Below, piece after piece: positions 24,398 to 32,124 of a stretch of 32,124 bases of DNA; positions within the stretch are counted from its first letter, which is position 1, and each line of letters opens with the position of its first letter. Position numbers and translations under genes: made by a program. Source of the stretch: a bacterium (lineage in GTDB: Bacteria; UBA8248). The notes beneath the pieces are model-generated. The model saw only the letters and a list, made by a program, of their open reading frames with translations. It made no database searches and was not told the DNA's origin. The DNA lies in the NCBI GenBank assembly GCA_963692865.2, contig CAXXHI010000002.1:1-32124 (forward strand), given 5' to 3'.

Positions 24398-24519
24398 GGC
24401 CGCAAATCGGAATGCACCCGCAATGAATCATCCAGAGTAGATGGATAATTCCACGGCTTCGGCCGTGGACGCATTGCATACGAAATGATTTGAAAATCGC
24501 ATGATTTGGGAGGCTGTTG

Positions 24520-25389
24520 ATGGCGACGGCGACGGATGAAGTCAGAAGAGATGACGTAAAACTGCCTGACGAATACACGAAGCAGGAAAGAGTCTGGATG
24601 TGGCTCAAGGACAACGTCCCGAGCTTCATCGCGGTGCTCGTGATATGGGAGTGCATCGCCTGGTACGTGAGCGAGCCCGCGCTGTTTCCGCGCGTATTCC
24701 CCATTCTGCACCGCTTCTACGAGGTCACCTTCCTGAAGTCCGGTGAGACCACATGCGTTTTGTGCGTACACTCCTATCACACCGCATGGCGGATTATGGT
24801 GGGAATGATCATCGCGGGCTTCGTGGGGATAGGCATCGGGATCGCGATGGGGCGAATCGGCTGGTTCGAGAAGTTCATGATCCCCATCCTGAGCATGCTC
24901 CTGCCCATTCCGGCCCTGGCGTGGAGTCCGATTCTCGTCCTGTGGTTCGGCCTCGGCAACACGACGATGATCTTCATTACCGCGTTCGCCGCGGCGCTTC
25001 CGGCCATCTCCTCCACCTGGACGGGCGTGAAGACCATCAATCCGATCTGGATACGGGCGGCGCAGTCGATGAACGCCGAGGGAATGACCCTGTTCTGGAA
25101 GGTCATTTTCCCCGGCTCGCTGCCCTTCATCCTCTCGGGCATCCGCATCGGCCTCGCGCGCGCCTGGCGCGCCGGCATCGCGGGCGAGATGGTGGCCGCG
25201 AGCGACTGGGGTCTCGGCTACGCCATCTTCGACAGCCGCGAGGACCTGGACACCGCCTTCATGCTGGTGGGCATCGCGGCCATCGCCCTGGTCGGCTTCG
25301 TGATGGAGAAGTTCATCTTCGAGAAGTTCGAGAAGGTGACCGTCGTCAAGTGGGGCATGATGGAAGAGGTCGGCGGACAGCGCCAATAG
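24520..25389 (+). CDS. ABC transporter permease, NitT/TauT (SsuC/TauC-like)
   Basis: Hydrophobic helices, PIPALAWSP, EAA-like AAQSMNA loop and AGEMVAASDWGLG; GGAGG RBS. Confidence 0.88.
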   Translation: MATATDEVRRDDVKLPDEYTKQERVWMWLKDNVPSFIAVLVIWECIAWYVSEPALFPRVFPILHRFYEVTFLKSGETTCVLCVHSYHTAWRIMVGMIIAGFVGIGIGIAMGRIGWFEKFMIPILSMLLPIPALAWSPILVLWFGLGNTTMIFITAFAAALPAISSTWTGVKTINPIWIRAAQSMNAEGMTLFWKVIFPGSLPFILSGIRIGLARAWRAGIAGEMVAASDWGLGYAIFDSREDLDTAFMLVGIAAIALVGFVMEKFIFEKFEKVTVVKWGMMEEVGGQRQ

Positions 25390-25472: not shown

Positions 25473-26225
25473 CTAGTTGCCGCGCACGGCTTCGGTCGCC
25501 ATGTGTTCGAGTTCGATAACCCTCGGGTCGAAGGGGTCGCGGGGACGCGGGACGTCCACGACGATCTCCTTGTGAATCTGCCCCGGCTGGCCCGCGAGAA
25601 CGATGATCCTGTCCGCGAGGTAGACCGCCTCGCTCAGGTTGTGCGTGACGTAGAAGATGGTCTTCTTCGTTTTCTCCCATACCTCGACCGTAAGCGACTG
25701 GAGGTTCTCGCGCGTCTGCGCGTCGAGCGCGCCGAAGGGTTCGTCCATGAGCATGAACTGCGGCTCGTAGGCGTACGCCCGCGCCACGGCGACGCGCTGC
25801 TTCATGCCGCCCGAGAGGTTGTGGGGGTAGAGATGGGTGAATTTTTCGAGGTGGACGAGCTCGAGAAATTCCTGCGCCTTTTGACTGCGCTCCTCCTTGC
25901 CGAGGCCTTTCATCTCCAGGCCGAACTCGACGTTCCTGAGCGCCGTGCGCCAGGGGAAAAGCGCGTATTCCTGAAAAACGACGCCCCGGTTCATGCGGCC
26001 CGCGGCGGAAATGGGGTTGCCGTCCAAAAGAATGGAGCCCGCCGTGTGGTTCAGGAAGCCCGCGAGAATGTTCAGCAGCGTGGTTTTCCCGCAACCGGAC
26101 AGTCCCACGACGCAGAGGAATTCCCCGTCCTGGATGTCTAGGTTGATGTCCTGTAGGGCGTACACCTTTCTGTCCTTCAGGTAGTATTCCATGTGCAGAT
26201 TCTTGATGCTTACTTTCGCCGGCAT
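25473..26225 (-). CDS. ABC transporter ATP-binding protein, NitT/TauT (SsuB/TauB-like)
   Basis: Walker A GLSGCGKT, VFQEYALFPW, LSGGMKQR, LMDEPFGALD and VTH motifs. Confidence 0.92.
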   Translation of the reverse strand: MPAKVSIKNLHMEYYLKDRKVYALQDINLDIQDGEFLCVVGLSGCGKTTLLNILAGFLNHTAGSILLDGNPISAAGRMNRGVVFQEYALFPWRTALRNVEFGLEMKGLGKEERSQKAQEFLELVHLEKFTHLYPHNLSGGMKQRVAVARAYAYEPQFMLMDEPFGALDAQTRENLQSLTVEVWEKTKKTIFYVTHNLSEAVYLADRIIVLAGQPGQIHKEIVVDVPRPRDPFDPRVIELEHMATEAVRGN

Positions 26226-26357: not shown

Positions 26358-27116
26358 TCAGAAAATTACGGCGACTCCCTCGTAGTTCATGACGAGGAGG
26401 ATGGCGCCCATGAGGAACAGAACAGCCGTGACGATACGGAAGAACGCCTGATCCGAGAAGATGTTGTATATCTTCGTGCCCACGAAAAAGCCGAGCAGCA
26501 CGGGCGTCGAGAGGATGAGGATGAGCCACAGGGCCGTCTCGCCGATGTAGCCCGCCGCCGCGATGGAGGCGATGGCGGCGACGCGGAGCACCACCTGGCT
26601 TGCGCTCAGCACGAAGAGGTAGCGCTCCTTGGAGATTTTCATCCCCGTGAGATAGGAGGCGATGACGTGGGATGGGATGTTGATGGTGCCCAGCATCAGT
26701 CCCGCGACCGCGCCCATGCCCAGTGAGCGCTTCAGCGAATCCTCGGGATCAGGCTTTTCGGGCCGGCTCCATTGCCAGACGATCTGACAGATCAGGAAGG
26801 CGCCCAGGATGAATTTCATCAGGCGCGGATCCGTGTTCAGGAGAATCGTGAGGCCGGCGGCCAGACCCACGAGGCTCATCGAAAAGAAGGGAACAAAGGG
26901 CCGCAAGCCTTCGTGGACGGCGGCGCGCGTTCGCCAGGCGTTCATGAGGCTCGTGCACAGGGTGGGAATGGAGATGACGGCGATGGCCGTGGGCAAATCC
27001 CAGAAAATGGCCACGGTGGGCGTCGTCAAGGTGGCGAAGCCGAATCCGCCCACGGCTTTGAGGCCCGAGCCGACGAAGGCGGCGCAAAAGGCGAGTATCA
27101 ATGCGAGTGGGTTCAA
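26358..27116 (-). CDS. Sulfite exporter TauE/SafE family membrane protein
   Basis: GSGLKAVGGFGF N-terminal motif and about 8 hydrophobic segments; GGAGG RBS before TTG 27116. Confidence 0.8.
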   Translation of the reverse strand: MNPLALILAFCAAFVGSGLKAVGGFGFATLTTPTVAIFWDLPTAIAVISIPTLCTSLMNAWRTRAAVHEGLRPFVPFFSMSLVGLAAGLTILLNTDPRLMKFILGAFLICQIVWQWSRPEKPDPEDSLKRSLGMGAVAGLMLGTINIPSHVIASYLTGMKISKERYLFVLSASQVVLRVAAIASIAAAGYIGETALWLILILSTPVLLGFFVGTKIYNIFSDQAFFRIVTAVLFLMGAILLVMNYEGVAVIF

Positions 27117-27217
27117 GGCGCCTCCGCTTGGAAAACCTGCGATACATCGTCCTGAATGGCTCGAAGAGCGGCCAAGCATATTTCATAAACGGAAATCTGT
27201 AAATTAAGCGGGCAACC

Positions 27218-27247
27218 TTGACGCGCCCGCGCCGGTATCGGCATTAT
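27218..27247 (+). promoter_or_regulatory. Possible sigma70 promoter for the LLM operon
   Basis: TTGACG-N18-CATTAT in the divergent intergenic region. Confidence 0.3.
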
Positions 27248-27371
27248 GCTCCCCGATTCCTGATGCGGGAAACCCGAGAGTCGCGTTTTTTTCGTCTTGA
27301 GAATCGCCTTGCGGGCCGCCCGAGAGGAATTCACCCAAGCGAGTTTCGCGCAACGAAGCCGGGGATTTTTT

Positions 27372-28442
27372 ATGGACTTTTCGCTTTTTTACATTCTGTA
27401 CCGTCCCGAAGATATGACCGAGGCCCGGGTTCATGAGGATATGCTCACGGAAAGTATACTGGCGGACGAGTTGGGCTATTCGTGCGTATGGTACGCCGAG
27501 CATCACTTCTCCCGCGTCGGGATGATTCCCGATCCCCTCCTGATTTGCGCCGCCGTGGCCCAGAAGACGAAAAAGATACACGTGGGCACGGCCATTTCCA
27601 TCATGTCGTTCCACGATCCCATCCGGCTGGCCGAGCAGGCCGCCATGGTCGATCTCCTGAGCGGCGGCAGGCTGGAGTTGGGCGTGGGGCGCGGCTCCCA
27701 GCCCAAGGAGTTCCAGGGATTCGGCGCCAAGCCGTCCGAGAGCCGCGAGCGCTTAAAAGAGGGGCTCCATGTTCTCTCCCGCCTTCTCGAAGGGGAGAAA
27801 GTGACGTTCCAGGGGCGGTATCACAGTTGCGAGGACGTGGAAATCTTCCCCAAGCCCCTGCAAAAGCCGAGACCCCCCATCTGGCTGGCGGGCACGAGCC
27901 CCGAAACCTACACCTATGCGGGCGAGAACGGCTTCAAGGTGATGGCCTCGGCGGGCTTCACGGGGCCCGAAGTGTACAAGCAAAAGTTCGGGCTGTATGA
28001 GGACGCCATCCGAAAATCGGGCGGCGACCCCGCCGGAATCGAGAGGCCGCTCGTTCACCACATCCACGTGTGCGACGCGGCGGATGCGGAAGAATACTTC
28101 AACCTGACTGTAGAAGGCGAGGGCGAATACCTGCGCTACCGGGCGAAGATGAACGAGGTGGAGATGCCCGAGGACGAGGCGAAGCACCTGAAGCGCAACT
28201 GGAGCTATGAGCTGAACGTCGAGGAGATCGTCAGGGGCGGCGGCATCATCGCCGATCCGGGAGCCGTCGCGGAGGATATCTGCAGGCTGCGCGATGACTA
28301 CGGGGTCAATCACGTCATCCTGGCGCCCTGGCGCGGGCCGGACCACGCCTCGGTGATGCGCTCGATAGAGAGCTTCGCGAACGACGTCATGCCGCTGGTG
28401 AACGCCGCCGCGCCCGCCGCTTCGAACGGCAGCAACGCTTGA
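27372..28442 (+). CDS. LLM class (luciferase-like) flavin-dependent oxidoreductase, paralogue A
   Basis: WYAEHHF, HDPIRLAEQAAMVDLLSGGRLELGVGRG and PKPLQKPRPPIW motifs. Confidence 0.9.
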   Translation: MDFSLFYILYRPEDMTEARVHEDMLTESILADELGYSCVWYAEHHFSRVGMIPDPLLICAAVAQKTKKIHVGTAISIMSFHDPIRLAEQAAMVDLLSGGRLELGVGRGSQPKEFQGFGAKPSESRERLKEGLHVLSRLLEGEKVTFQGRYHSCEDVEIFPKPLQKPRPPIWLAGTSPETYTYAGENGFKVMASAGFTGPEVYKQKFGLYEDAIRKSGGDPAGIERPLVHHIHVCDAADAEEYFNLTVEGEGEYLRYRAKMNEVEMPEDEAKHLKRNWSYELNVEEIVRGGGIIADPGAVAEDICRLRDDYGVNHVILAPWRGPDHASVMRSIESFANDVMPLVNAAAPAASNGSNA

Positions 28443-28482
28443 TGTCATCTTCTTTTCCTGAACATTCTGGAGGCGCTTTTTC

Positions 28483-29463
28483 GTGGGTATGAGTTTTAGT
28501 CTTCACTTGGTGCCGGACGACATCCGGCTCGTGGCGCAGCGTTCGAAATACGCGGAGGACAACGGTTTCGAACAGGTCTGGATAGCGGAGAGCCACCTCA
28601 CCTGCCGGGATCACAACGTCGCGCTCGCCCTGGCGATAGAGAACACCTCGCACGTGAAAATCGGCCCCGGCGTGACGAACCCGGTGCTGCACGACGACAG
28701 CGTGGCGGCGAGCGCCATCGCCACGCTCGACGAACTCTCGGGCGGCCGCGTGCTGTTCGGCATCGGCTCGGGAGACACGCCCGTCTACACGCTGGGAAAG
28801 AAGATGGCCAGACTCGCCCGGATGCGCGAGTCCATCGCGGCCGTTCGCGCGTTCACGCGCGGCGAGACGGTGGAATACGCCGAAGGCGTGAACGTGAAGA
28901 TGTGGTGTGAGCGCGATATCCCCATCTACACCTCCGCCGAAGGCCCGAGGACGCTCGCCATGTCGGCGGAGGTCGCCGACGGCGTCATCGTCGGTTCGGG
29001 CGTCTACCAGGAGACGGTGGACTGGGTGATGAAGTACCTGAACGAGGGGATGGCGAATCGCGACGCCTCTCTCGGGGAGATGGACGTCATATTCGGCGCG
29101 GTCGTCTCGGTGGACACAGACGGCGTGCGCGCGCGCGAGAAGGTGCGGGCGCGGGTGGCGAACCGCGCGCACCACAACTTCCGCATGACGCTCGACTCGG
29201 TGCCCGACCCGTTCAAGCCAGAGATTCAGAACCTCCTCGACAACTTCGACGTGAGCAACTGGCGGGATCCCAAGCACGTGCCCCTCATCACCGACTACAT
29301 TCTGGACCGTTTCACCATCACGGGAACGCCCGAGCAGTGCGTCGAGCGCATCCAGGAAATCGAGTCCTACGGCGTCAAGAGCATCATGATCGACCCGCCG
29401 GTCCAGGATTTCGACGAATCGCTCAGAATGTTCACCGAAGAGGTTTTGCCCAGGTGCGTATGA
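28483..29463 (+). CDS. LLM class oxidoreductase, Mer-like (possibly F420-dependent)
   Basis: WIAESH, IGPGVTNP, ATLDELSGGRVLFGIGSGD and GPRTLAMSAEVADG resemble methylene-H4MPT reductase-like LLMs. Confidence 0.8.
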   Translation: MGMSFSLHLVPDDIRLVAQRSKYAEDNGFEQVWIAESHLTCRDHNVALALAIENTSHVKIGPGVTNPVLHDDSVAASAIATLDELSGGRVLFGIGSGDTPVYTLGKKMARLARMRESIAAVRAFTRGETVEYAEGVNVKMWCERDIPIYTSAEGPRTLAMSAEVADGVIVGSGVYQETVDWVMKYLNEGMANRDASLGEMDVIFGAVVSVDTDGVRAREKVRARVANRAHHNFRMTLDSVPDPFKPEIQNLLDNFDVSNWRDPKHVPLITDYILDRFTITGTPEQCVERIQEIESYGVKSIMIDPPVQDFDESLRMFTEEVLPRCV

Positions 29464-29511
29464 TCGCATCCGGGGCGCAATCGAAAGTCTTTTTCTTATG
29501 AGGAACCAAAA

Positions 29512-29910
29512 ATGGCGCTGATACCCGAATCTCATGCAGGCATTCTCGACACCAAGGCCCTCCTGTATCTGGGAACCCAGAACAAGGACGGCTCTCCCCA
29601 GGTCTCTCCCGTGTGGTTCGGGACCAACGGGGACATCATCGAGGTCAATTCGGCCAAGGGGCGTCTCAAGGACCTGAACATGCGCGCGCGTCCCAAGGTG
29701 TCGATGGCCATCGTCGACCCCGAAAACGCCTACAGGTGGGTGGGGTTGCAGGGCACGGTGGTCGAGATAACCGAGAACGGGGCGGAAGAGCACATCGACG
29801 CCCTGGCGAATAAGTACCTGGGCGTGGACAGCTACCCGAACCGTCAGGCGGGGCAGGTGCGCGTCATCTACCGCATCCGGGCGGACAAGGTGTTCACGAT
29901 GGGCGCGTAA
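29512..29910 (+). CDS. PPOX class (split beta-barrel) putative F420-dependent oxidoreductase
   Basis: DGSPQVSPVWF, GRLKDLNMRARPKV, DPENAYRWVGLQG and HIDALANKYLG match the Rv1155-like pattern. Confidence 0.85.
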   Translation: MALIPESHAGILDTKALLYLGTQNKDGSPQVSPVWFGTNGDIIEVNSAKGRLKDLNMRARPKVSMAIVDPENAYRWVGLQGTVVEITENGAEEHIDALANKYLGVDSYPNRQAGQVRVIYRIRADKVFTMGA

Positions 29911-29955
29911 GCCGCCACGCGCACACGATTTTTGCAAGGGATGGAGACCTGAAAG

Positions 29956-31011
29956 ATGAAATTCTCGCTTTTCTATATTCCTGCCTGTCAGGAAGGGGAG
30001 ACCTATCAGCGCGAGTTCGATCTGCTGATCGAACAGTGCGAGGTGGCCGACGAGCTCGGCTACGATACCGTGTTCCTGGCCGAGCACCACTTCTCCCGCG
30101 TGGGCATGTGCCCCGACGCCCTGATGGTCGCGCTCGCCATCGCGCAAAGAACGAAGAAGATACGGATCGGCACCGCCATCTGCATCATGCCCTTCCACAA
30201 TCCGGTGCGCCTGGCCGAACAGGCCGCTCTGGTCGACGTGCTGAGCGGCGGTCGCCTGGAGTTGGGCGTGGGCCGAGGCTCCCAGCCCAAGGAGTTTCAG
30301 GGCTTCAACATCTCACCGTCTGAGAGCAGGGAGAAGATGCAGGAGGGCCTCGAGGTGATGACCCGCCTGCTGGAGGGGGAATGCCTCACCTTCCACGGGA
30401 AGCACTACAGTTGCATCGACGCGGAGATTTTCCCGAAACCCGTCCAGAAGCCGCGCCCTCCCATCTGGCTGGCCGGCACGAGTCCCGAAACCTACGTCTT
30501 TGCCGGAGAGAAGGGATTCAACATCATGGCGTCGGGCACCTTCAAGGGTCCTGACGTGTATCTGGAGAAGATGACGCTCTTCCAGGAAACCGTGCGGAAG
30601 CGAGGCGGCGACCCGAGCAATTATCCCTCACTCATGGCGCACCACGTCCACGTGTGCGACGACCCCGAGCACGCCTGGAAGCAGATCGAACCCTCCGAAT
30701 CGTGGTATCTCTCCTACCGCAGCGCGGTGAACGCCATCGAGATGCCGCTGGAGGAGAAAGAGGCGCTCAAGCGCAACTGGAGCTACGACGTCGACATCCG
30801 CCAAGTCATCGAGGGCGGCGGCGTCATCGGCTCGCCGGATAAGGTGATCGCCGACCTCAAGCGGCTCCAGAAGGAGTTCAAGGTGAACCACATCATGATC
30901 TTCGTGCTGCGCGGCATCGCCCAGGACGAGGCGATTCAGTCGATAGAGCGGTTTGCGGAAGAAGTGATGCCCGCGTTCGCAGAAGAGCGCGCGGCAAGTT
31001 CAAGCGAATAA
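29956..31011 (+). CDS. LLM class (luciferase-like) flavin-dependent oxidoreductase, paralogue B
   Basis: FLAEHHF, HNPVRLAEQAALVDVLSGGRLELGVGRG and PKPVQKPRPPIW motifs. Confidence 0.9.
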   Translation: MKFSLFYIPACQEGETYQREFDLLIEQCEVADELGYDTVFLAEHHFSRVGMCPDALMVALAIAQRTKKIRIGTAICIMPFHNPVRLAEQAALVDVLSGGRLELGVGRGSQPKEFQGFNISPSESREKMQEGLEVMTRLLEGECLTFHGKHYSCIDAEIFPKPVQKPRPPIWLAGTSPETYVFAGEKGFNIMASGTFKGPDVYLEKMTLFQETVRKRGGDPSNYPSLMAHHVHVCDDPEHAWKQIEPSESWYLSYRSAVNAIEMPLEEKEALKRNWSYDVDIRQVIEGGGVIGSPDKVIADLKRLQKEFKVNHIMIFVLRGIAQDEAIQSIERFAEEVMPAFAEERAASSSE

Positions 31012-31035
31012 CGTTTGTTTCAAGGAGAACGGAGA

Positions 31036-31635
31036 ATGTGGATATCCCCATTAAGGCTGAATGACGCCCAGGAACCCGCGCGCGGGATTCTCGAGGGCAT
31101 CCGGGCGAAAAGAGGCGCGGTGCCCAAACTGCTGCTCACGATGGCGCGCAGGCCCCAGGTCCTGAACGGGCGCCAGACGATGAACATGGCCGTCCACGGC
31201 GGCAATTCGACGCTGGGCCAAAGGCGCGAGGAGTTGATCTCCTACTACGTCGCCACCATCGGCGGGTGCTATGGCTGAACGATGAACCATGGCCAGGCTT
31301 TCCGTGCTGAAAGCGGCGACGACGTAACGCTGGCCGACGTGGCCACCGTGGTGACGGACAGGGACGATTCTCCGGCTCTCGACGATGCGGACAAGGCGAT
31401 GCTCGCCTTCGCCGAAAAACTCACGTTCGACCACTACGCCATGAGCGAGGCGGACCTGGACGCGCTGCGCGAGGCGGGGTTCTCAGATGAGAACATATTG
31501 GACATCATCGGCTCCGTCTCGTACCGGAACATGAGCAACCGGCTGAATCTGGCGCTCGGCCTCGACGCGGTCGAACCCGAAGGCCCCGATGAGCTGATGG
31601 AGGTGGTGCGCTTTTCGAGAACCGCGCGGGCTTAA
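31036..31635 (+). CDS. AhpD/carboxymuconolactone decarboxylase family peroxidase-related protein, probable selenoprotein (CxxU; TGA at 31276-31278, codon 81)
   Basis: ORFs 31015..31278 and 31282..31635 share a frame and are separated only by TGA. The joined 199-aa protein reads REELISYYVATIGGCYG-U-TMNHG...AMLAFAEKLT...LREAGFSDENILDII...NMSNRLNLALG. Confidence 0.8.
31297..31314 (+). promoter_or_regulatory. Candidate bacterial SECIS hairpin
   Basis: GCTTTC-cgtgct-GAAAGC stem-loop starts 18 nt after the TGA, with G at loop position 2. ggccag/ctggcc could form a lower stem. Confidence 0.45.
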
Positions 31636-31753
31636 AAACGTATTTCCGCTCGCCGGCCCCACAACGCCCGGCCGGTGATTAACAGGCAAATTCGCCATCG
31701 TTCATTTGCGCCCCCTTGCGGGCCGCGAAACAACCCAGAAAGGAAGGGTTTCC

Positions 31754-32124
31754 ATGCCAGACCTCACCATCCGTCCGCTGAACTGCGGCACCATCCATAC
31801 GGATTATTCCAATATGGTGTATTGGACGAATTTCGGGACGAAACTCGAGATTCCCTCGTTCATCTACATGATCGAGGGGGCGAAGGACCACGACGGGAAA
31901 GACGTGAAAATCGTCGTCGACACCAGTTTTCTGGACCCCGAGCGCGGCGGCGCTCCCTGGCCCGCGAGCCGGGAGCCCGGCCAGGGCGTGCGCGAACAGT
32001 TGGAAGGCGCGGGCTGGAAGCCCGAGGAAGTGGACATTCTCATCCTCACTCACTTGCACTGGGATCATTCCCAGAACTGCGATCTGTTCACCAACGCGAT
32101 CAAATACGTGTGGGCGGAGGAGCT
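31754..32124 (+). CDS. MBL-fold metallohydrolase, N-acyl homoserine lactonase-like (3'-truncated by window; absent from ORF track)
   Basis: Translated manually: MPDLTIRPLNCG...IVVDTS...ILILTHLHWDHSQN (HxHxDH); AGGAAGG upstream. Confidence 0.85.
   Translation, partial: MPDLTIRPLNCGTIHTDYSNMVYWTNFGTKLEIPSFIYMIEGAKDHDGKDVKIVVDTSFLDPERGGAPWPASREPGQGVREQLEGAGWKPEEVDILILTHLHWDHSQNCDLFTNAIKYVWAEE

Follow-up and report, generated by a model that had tools for sequence, protein, structure and literature searches.

A seven-gene operon joining luciferase-like monooxygenases, an F420-type reductase, an AhpD-like selenoprotein and a lactonase-like hydrolase in an uncultured marine Nitrospinota bacterium

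Gene content and layout of the operon

We analysed a 32,124-bp stretch of DNA (the window), which is the complete contig C3 of a 4.15-Mb metagenome-assembled genome (MAG; 61% G+C, 97.4% completeness, 6.7% contamination) of an uncultured marine Nitrospinota bacterium, and found at one of its ends a seven-gene operon, g1 to g7, of which the window contains g1 to g5 and the start of g6. A preliminary description of the window had listed six genes at 27372-32124, all on the plus strand and separated by short gaps: a luciferase-like monooxygenase (LLM), a Mer-like LLM, a PPOX-type reductase, a second LLM, an AhpD-like gene with an internal UGA codon and a metallo-beta-lactamase (MBL) fold hydrolase. 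When we scored these genes with Pfam and NCBIfam profiles against the curated cut-offs, we recovered the same order and the same families, including the selenocysteine (Sec) reading of the AhpD-like gene. The gaps between successive genes from g1 to g6 are 40, 48, 45, 24 and about 70-118 bp. The seventh gene encodes a small protein of the carboxymuconolactone decarboxylase (CMD) family. The features of the operon are:

27180..27371, no strand assigned: divergent intergenic region, likely operon promoter (sigma-70-like site on the chromosomal copy)
27372..28442, plus strand: g1, LLM (PF00296, E 1.7e-58)
28483..29463, plus strand: g2, Mer-like LLM oxidoreductase (best NCBIfam matches are Mer models)
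29512..29910, plus strand: g3, PPOX/FDOR-B class, F420-type small reductase (TIGR03618; PF01243, E 1.9e-12)
29956..31011, plus strand: g4, LLM, first gene of the conserved core (PF00296, E 1.1e-63)
31036..31635, plus strand: g5, AhpD-like selenoprotein, 199 codons, single frame through TGA (TIGR01926)
31276..31278, plus strand: UGA read as Sec, an in-frame TGA in GGCYG-U-TMNHG
31297..31314, plus strand: candidate bacterial Sec insertion sequence (SECIS) hairpin, GCUUUC-CGUGCU-GAAAGC, 18 nt after the UGA, 6-bp stem
31754..32124, plus strand: g6, MBL-fold hydrolase, lactonase-like, N-terminal part only because of the contig end; alternative TTG start at 31706 (PF00753, E 2.3e-7)
Outside the window, after g6 in the same operon: g7, small PcaC-like CMD protein, 125 aa (PF02627, 37.1 bits vs 23)

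C3 aligns in reverse to C1:3327982-3360185 of the same MAG at 90-97.5% identity. Since C3 nearly duplicates this stretch of C1, we take the window to be a co-assembled strain variant; the cluster is also complete on the chromosome. In the chromosomal copy, the operon goes on with a full lactonase-like MBL gene (g6), the small CMD gene (g7) and a strong terminator. Upstream of g1 lies a TauE-family permease gene that is divergent from the operon, as had been claimed. On the operon strand of the chromosomal copy, we found no terminator-like site inside the cluster; from the TauE-g1 gap onwards, the first and only such site is a hairpin with a 14-bp stem and a T-run right after g7. The TauE-g1 gap of the chromosomal copy (locus L092) holds a sigma-70-like site, TTGACG-18-CATTAT, on the operon strand; it is weak evidence for a promoter because the number of sites in the scan (3) is not above that in shuffles (mean 2.2). 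In two RNA libraries of a single study we found assembled contigs, 95-99% alike, that cover g2 to g6 in part and span the g2-g3, g3-g4 and g4-g5 junctions, including the UGA codon. They do not cover TauE and most of g1, which is not evidence of silence. Because the gene order is kept in related loci, and because the cluster has no internal terminator and a terminator after g7, the arrangement is more than chance.

Downstream of the terminator, there is a non-coding stretch of about 900 bp with repeated G+C-rich hairpins, for example ACTCCCCCTCAAGGGGGGAGT on both strands (L029 14500-15350; L092 7179-7337, 8990-9139), and the same stretch yields recurring 'GLLKK'-like peptides in several frames. 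The hairpins look like intergenic repeats of the repetitive extragenic palindrome (REP) type. Further downstream in relatives (L029 15364-16250) are a regulator of the Rrf2 family, RirA/NsrR-like and below the equivalog cut-offs, and a bacterial-globin-like open reading frame (ORF), which may form a separate nitrosative or iron-stress unit.

The selenoprotein g5 and the enzymes encoded around it

The g5 product passes TIGR01926 (112.8 bits vs a cut-off of 81.8) and the Pfam CMD profile (28.2 vs 23), and it carries the motif E66-x11-C78-x2-U81-x3-H85 (C78-Y-G-U81-T-M-N-H85). U81 falls in the column of the second Cys of CxxC-x3-H, which is Cys in the 11 full-length homologs that we aligned. The closest database relatives of g5 (63-93% identity) are fragments of 116-117 residues that start right after the TGA, as gene callers produce from a Sec gene. 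The Sec machinery of the genome scores over the cut-offs (selA 567, selB 392 and selD 335 bits), and ARAGORN finds a tRNA-Sec. The selD gene (C1:65915-66877) has one in-frame TGA itself, so it encodes a selenoprotein form of selenophosphate synthetase.

Orthologs of g5 with at least 60% identity are present in 27 of the 51 genomes of our phylum set, and all 27 have exactly one TGA. They comprise 22 of the 23 genomes of the window's genus (genus g1 in our labels), 4 of 4 from genus g8, and genome G039. The TGA is conserved in 17 of 17 orthologous loci, and also in genera g8 and g5. We assign g5, by its gene sequence and those of its orthologs, to the selenoproteins of the AhpD-like CxxU family.

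The stem of the candidate SECIS hairpin is invariant in the 17 loci, the single nearby change falling in the loop, and similar hairpins are found in G039 (7 bp) and in genus g8 (one pair compensatory, one broken). Of the 12 eligible codons among the 15 that follow the UGA, 3 show synonymous change, as compared to 77 of 107 elsewhere (17 distinct sequences; Fisher p = 0.002, an approximate value because the sequences are related). A scan of positions 31150-31450 against Rfam with E up to 10 yielded neither a SECIS nor any other family, and the 71-nt stretch 31270-31340 folds no more stably than its shuffles (z = -0.19). The case for a SECIS rests on conservation, since the local fold is not unusually stable.

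AhpD-like CxxU selenoproteins have been known as a family since 2005. In the Global Ocean Sampling (GOS) data, 'AhpD-like 1, COG2128, CxxU' is listed with 299 genes as the fourth most abundant selenoprotein family (PMC2398784), and the available part of a 2026 review tabulates 'AhpD-like protein, TIGR01926, CxxU' with one Sec and only as CxxU (PMC13188914). The operon had been put forward as undescribed; this stands for the combination of genes in the open-access literature that we searched, and not for the selenoprotein, which belongs to this long-known family.

A 47%-identical AhpD-like paralog at about 249.2-249.8 kb of C1 (L089 8717-9292) has two in-frame TGAs, at both Cys positions, giving GG-U-YG-U-AMNHG (UxxU). 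Two-TGA AhpD-like matches were present in 24 of the 51 genomes scanned. The UxxU paralog may be an undescribed di-selenocysteine form.

The two LLMs g1 and g4 are paralogs with 54% identity. Their best NCBIfam model is TIGR04020 (MupA/Atu3671, FMN type; 145 and 168 bits, cut-off 244), and the F420-type model TIGR03619 gives 127-132 bits, also under its cut-off. The nearest solved structures of both are FMN-type, and those nearest to g4 are 7bip (8e-34), 6ket and LuxA. Orthologs of g4 with at least 55% identity are only unnamed or Nitrospinae-labelled metagenome proteins, and its nearest non-orthologous relatives (33-39% identity) include LLMs of SAR202/Dehalococcoidia.

There are 35 LLM matches on the 3.9-Mb C1, including 8 SsuD-like, 1 SfnG-like and 8 that pass the cut-offs of F420-LLM families. 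We built a tree from g1, g2, g4 and the 32 C1 LLMs outside the cluster, each scored with NCBIfam. In this tree, g1, g4 and a third paralog at C1:2392645 form a 100/100 triad within a 12-row clade that lacks any F420-passing paralog, and this clade is split at 99/99 from a clade with all eight F420-passing and all nine SsuD/SfnG-like paralogs. By both tree position and best model, g1 and g4 do not group with the F420-type LLMs. We found no paralogous copy of the cluster near the third LLM at C1:2392645. The Mer-like g2 shares a 99/99 clade with two Mer-like, two TIGR04024-like and one TIGR03617-passing paralog; g2 itself passes no family cut-off. Its ten top NCBIfam matches are all F420 families, and it matches solved Mer structures end to end (8qq8 at 2e-41). 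We considered whether g2 is Mer itself and rejected this, as its scores are under the equivalog cut-offs (NF002619, 202 bits vs 276; TIGR03555, 175 bits vs 349); g2 is Mer-like in fold and length only.

The small reductase g3 passes TIGR03618 (Rv1155_F420; cut-off 79.05) with 98.3 bits, or with 97.8 bits when the whole genome is scanned, and is one of four loci with TIGR03618-type PPOX proteins on the chromosome. Its only match in the PDB is 3f7e (6.6e-16), which we take to be a mycobacterial reductase that depends on F420H2 and has aflatoxin-type lactones as substrates.

The preliminary description had tied the Mer-like LLM and PPOX genes to F420 and had set beforehand, as a refutation test, whether the genome can make this cofactor. 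We found that it encodes F420 biosynthesis: cofD (317 bits), cofH (396) and cofE (281) all exceed their cut-offs and occur together at C1:3859-3866 kb. Across the phylum set, 46 of 51 genomes have a cofE and 49 of 51 a cofH over the cut-off, and because F420 genes are near-universal there, their presence in the host cannot tell which genes of the cluster need F420. In the part available of a 2021 review, Nitrospinae genomes are said to encode the F420 pathway and F420 experiments outside the studied groups are said not to exist (PMC8498797). We find that F420 use is well founded, as predictions from protein families go, for g3, which passes TIGR03618, and likely for g2, given its F420-family matches and 99/99 clade. 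For g1 and g4, with an FMN-type best model and a place outside the F420 clade, predicted F420 use is unsupported.

In the window g6 is cut by the contig end, and its HxHxDH metal motif is present there as THLHWDH. A full-length ortholog, taken from relatives and C1, has 269 aa, and its nearest structure is the AiiA acyl-homoserine lactone (AHL) lactonase 4j5f (4e-15); relatives among solved structures include AiiA lactonases and dihydrocoumarin and methyl-parathion/organophosphate hydrolases. On the NCBIfam lactonase models it scores 70-76 bits, far under the cut-offs of 325-390. In 17 of the 17 loci that extend beyond g6, the CMD protein g7 comes directly after it, at 95-100% identity. No other protein of the set is as well conserved as g7, which has 90-92% identity to genus g8 and 75% to G039. 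Its nearest structure is 2q0t, a putative gamma-carboxymuconolactone decarboxylase (6e-19), an Atlas look-up of g7 gave only CMD-family clusters, and we found no CxxC-x3-H redox motif in its sequence.

A lineage-restricted core with a mosaic history

With g2 as query, we found 33 related loci, which include Nitrospinota/Nitrospinaceae MAGs and two Candidatus Tectomicrobia MAGs. Twelve of these loci have all six genes together with the upstream GFO, AstE, cupin, permease, ATPase and TauE genes, and four (L036, L037, L038 and L045) lack g1, which makes g1 absent in 4 of 16 complete loci. Another 3 of the 33 are cut by contig ends and are consistent with this layout. The remaining 14 have a g2 ortholog of 68-81% identity without g4 to g6; PPOX adjoins g2 in 4 of them, and in the two Tectomicrobia loci a cupin is upstream of the g2 ortholog.

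In genus g8, whose genomes are about 2 Mb, g3-g4-g5-g6-g7 lie behind the same upstream genes without g1, and the g2 ortholog is on another contig. Genome G039 has only g4-g5-g6-g7, and g1 is absent in genera g8 and g5. Orthologs of g2 are found in 38 of the 51 genomes, all of one family, and stand beside the core only in the window's genus. These comparisons of gene order show a stable unit of LLM (g4), Sec-AhpD (g5), MBL (g6) and CMD (g7) in three genera of one Nitrospinota family, to which g3, g2 and the duplicate LLM g1 were added stepwise. The six-gene form is genus-specific. The preliminary description had treated the six genes as one module and had named conservation of the set in other genomes as a test. 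The core is kept in three genera; PPOX is found with it in two genera, the Mer-like LLM only in the window's genus, and g1 is variably absent. As a claim about one module, the proposal was too strong, because the six genes combine, in a form specific to the genus, units that are conserved separately, of which the four-gene core recurs.

The contig around the operon is a catabolic island with MR/MLE, Rieske, cupin, amidase and amidohydrolase genes (Pfam searches of the window ORFs). Public runs labelled 'sponge metagenome' contain up to 0.42 of the words sampled from the stretch. Two enzymes of the contig are split between overlapping ORFs in different frames: an AMP-binding enzyme (3084-3941/3922-4632, plus strand) and a molybdopterin oxidoreductase (11055-11795/11486-13417, minus strand). 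Frameshifts, assembly errors or real breaks could explain the split ORFs. The seven small contigs of the MAG (C2-C8) each nearly duplicate, mostly at 90-99% identity, a stretch of C1 (3.94 Mb), and they look like co-assembled strain variants, which would explain the 6.7% contamination figure. A second tRNA-Sec, on C4, is a duplicate of this kind.

Possible function and comparison with known systems

We think it likely, with a probability of roughly 0.6, that the operon is an oxidative catabolic module, as yet uncharacterised, which is restricted to this lineage, mosaic in its history and built from known enzyme families. The predicted activities suggest a cyclic ketone or lactone-bearing compound as the substrate class. 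An LLM with reduced flavin and O2 would oxygenate a small compound of this kind, by hydroxylation or by Baeyer-Villiger-type insertion, after which the MBL enzyme g6 would open the resulting lactone or ester and the CMD protein g7 would decarboxylate or isomerise the product. The Mer-like g2 may carry out an F420 hydride step on an alcohol or ketone of the same scaffold, and g3 may carry out a hydride step on an activated double bond or supply reduced flavin. The selenoprotein g5 would reduce the peroxide or peracid by-product of the oxygenase, or a disulfide-type intermediate. The lactone theme comes from the LLM fold, which includes the type II Baeyer-Villiger enzymes, from the AiiA-like g6 and the carboxymuconolactone-decarboxylase-like g7, and from the MR/MLE, Rieske and cupin genes nearby. 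In the available part of a study of the marine, LLM-rich SAR202 bacteria, type II Baeyer-Villiger enzymes are described as sharing the LLM fold and a route from LLM to lactone to lactonase is proposed (PMC5395668). The set had not been recognised as a characterised pathway, and we found no publication on it in the open-access literature searched.

Several points weigh against this reading. None of g1, g2, g4, g6 and g7 reaches an equivalog or subfamily cut-off, and no enzyme of the operon is characterised. The cofactor of g1 and g4 could be of either type, since TIGR04020 (FMN) and TIGR03619 (F420) are both under cut-off. Between g4 and the solved Baeyer-Villiger LLM 4uwm there is no special closeness, as the match is at 1.5e-10 and over the N-terminal third only. 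We found no flavin reductase in or beside the cluster, as all four PF01613 genes lie elsewhere on the genome, and a search with TIGR01915 found no Fno (20.6 bits), although one model and one 97%-complete MAG do not prove absence. The RNA-library evidence consists of assembled contigs, so it shows neither strand nor ends, and DNA carry-over is possible. Given the mosaic history, a common substrate for all the genes is not a necessity. The relatives are all MAGs of a single family, so the counts are not independent. In a metagenome scan with an alignment of AhpD-like proteins (80 loci, 43 of them at least 5 kb), which reaches more distant relatives of g5, only one of the 43, the genus-g8-type ortholog L093, had LLM, MBL and CMD neighbours, so the linkage is not a family-wide rule.

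The operon could instead be a stress or detoxification module in which F420H2 reductases and LLMs act on toxic quinones, unsaturated lactones or xenobiotics, g5 disposes of peroxides and hydrolysis of the products falls to the MBL enzyme. The structures nearest to g5 are AhpD and the 'antioxidant defence' entries 6k40 and 3c1l, and both the aflatoxin-type lactone reductase matched by g3 and the dihydrocoumarin and organophosphate hydrolases related to g6 would suit such a role, as would the Rrf2 (NsrR/RirA-like) regulator and globin-like gene that lie about 0.9 kb downstream in relatives. However, the strong terminator and the roughly 900 bp of non-coding DNA stand between the operon and the Rrf2 gene, the surrounding contig encodes mostly catabolic enzymes and a transporter, and three LLM oxygenases would be unusual in a pure antioxidant unit. 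We consider this reading unlikely.

The genes upstream of the operon bear on a further possibility, proposed in the preliminary description, that the module degrades an organosulfur compound and exports sulfite:

24517..25389, plus strand: ATP-binding cassette (ABC) permease, NitT/TauT type (Pfam BPD_transp_1, E 1.4e-18)
25473..26225, minus strand: ABC ATPase (Pfam ABC_tran, E 1.7e-32)
26358..27179, minus strand: TauE/SafE-family membrane permease (Pfam PF01925, E 1e-21, 78 bits vs a cut-off of 32.6)

According to this idea, a TauBC-like ABC transporter would import a sulfonate or a related compound, the LLMs would desulfonate it, TauE would export sulfite and the selenoprotein would handle a sulfur intermediate. 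NitT/TauT-type genes are indeed present beside the operon; the ABC permease and ATPase are kept upstream, and TauE adjoins the cluster, in genera g1 and g8. However, the two ABC genes described as a pair are convergent in the window and both are under every NCBIfam cut-off, the permease being best matched by SaoP (136 bits) and TauC (135 bits) and the ATPase by SaoA (255 bits, cut-off 360) and TauB (247 bits, cut-off 357). TauE has no NCBIfam match, and no gene for a substrate-binding protein was found among the ORFs scanned. G039 keeps the core and has no TauE match within 19.9 kb around the cluster. SsuD-type enzymes share the LLM fold, but with the SsuD models g1 and g4 reach only 65-83 bits, the cut-offs being 510-518. 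The nine SsuD/SfnG-like paralogs of the genome reach 243-331 bits with SsuD or SfnG models and form a 100/99 clade that does not include g1 and g4; one of the nine has its own adjoining flavin reductase. In the part available of a review, the COG2128 relative YciW of E. coli is tied to CysB and cysteine tolerance (PMC10821248), which would favour a sulfur role; the lactonase-like and CMD genes, on the other hand, have no role in known desulfonation. The organosulfur proposal is therefore weakened by the distance of g1 and g4 from SsuD, by the nine better SsuD/SfnG-like candidates elsewhere and by the generic TauE and ABC calls; we did not uphold it, and we regard it as distinctly improbable.

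In the window's genus the ATPase is inverted relative to the permease, and in genus g8 the two are on the same strand (L086 5865, plus strand).

It is likewise improbable that the genes have no single function, having become neighbours by repeated rearrangement in an LLM-rich genome so that at least two unrelated activities lie on one transcript. Their shared orientation would then merely follow from how the genome is organised. The spread of g2, with orthologs in so many genomes and a place beside the core only in genus g1, would agree with this, as would the presence or absence of g1 within a genus and the changing partner of g3, which is g2 or g4 depending on the lineage; the 35 LLM matches on the chromosome also make LLM neighbours less surprising. 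Against it, the four-gene core is ordered alike in three genera at 52-91% protein identity, the gaps are short, the sole terminator-like site on the operon strand follows g7, and RNA-library contigs span three junctions.

Least probable, and in our view a long shot, is that the core forms a selenium- and deazaflavin-dependent oxygenase system in which g3 with F420H2 replaces the flavin reductase for the LLM, g5 reduces the peroxy or peracid product, and g6 and g7 finish the ring opening. If true, it would give the first assigned function for marine AhpD-like selenoproteins and the first coupling of F420 to an LLM oxygenase.

For now, the oxidative catabolic module that we favour adds to the list of uncharacterised catabolic clusters; its parts are familiar and its lineage is uncultured. 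CxxU proteins of the AhpD-like type rank with the commonest marine selenoproteins and have no known substrate, and no physiological role of F420 has been shown in Nitrospinota. The conserved operon offers a concrete set of proteins for co-expression and screening, which could assign a function to the selenoprotein and to the F420 enzymes.

Among known systems, the AhpD-like family shares with g5 the TIGR01926 profile, a CxxU motif whose U takes the place of the second Cys, and the His downstream of it. In contrast to the published family accounts, in whose available parts this link is absent, g5 is fixed in an operon with LLM, MBL and small CMD genes. Like Mer and the bacterial Mer-like LLM families TIGR03842 and TIGR04024, g2 has F420 LLM families as its top matches and aligns with the Mer structures over its whole length; unlike them, it is under the Mer cut-offs and under that of TIGR03842 (150 vs 295). 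With the Rv1155-type PPOX/FDOR-B reductases, g3 has in common that it passes TIGR03618 and that its host has F420 genes. The studied TIGR03618-type reductases come mainly from actinobacteria.

Two-component LLM oxygenase pathways that form and then open lactones, namely those of the camphor diketocamphane monooxygenases and of the SAR202 proposal, resemble the operon in having LLM oxygenases beside a lactonase-like hydrolase, here in a marine host with a large LLM set (35). The operon differs from these pathways in that g4 is nearer to 7bip, 6ket and LuxA than to the diketocamphane enzyme, and in that the cluster has F420-type enzymes and a selenoprotein and no flavin reductase. In the Rut pathway of E. 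coli, the LLM RutA makes a peracid that later enzymes reduce and hydrolyse. Although the cluster has no RutB-F homologs, this pathway may serve as a working analogy for the operon, in which the peroxy product of an LLM would need its own reductase and its own hydrolase.

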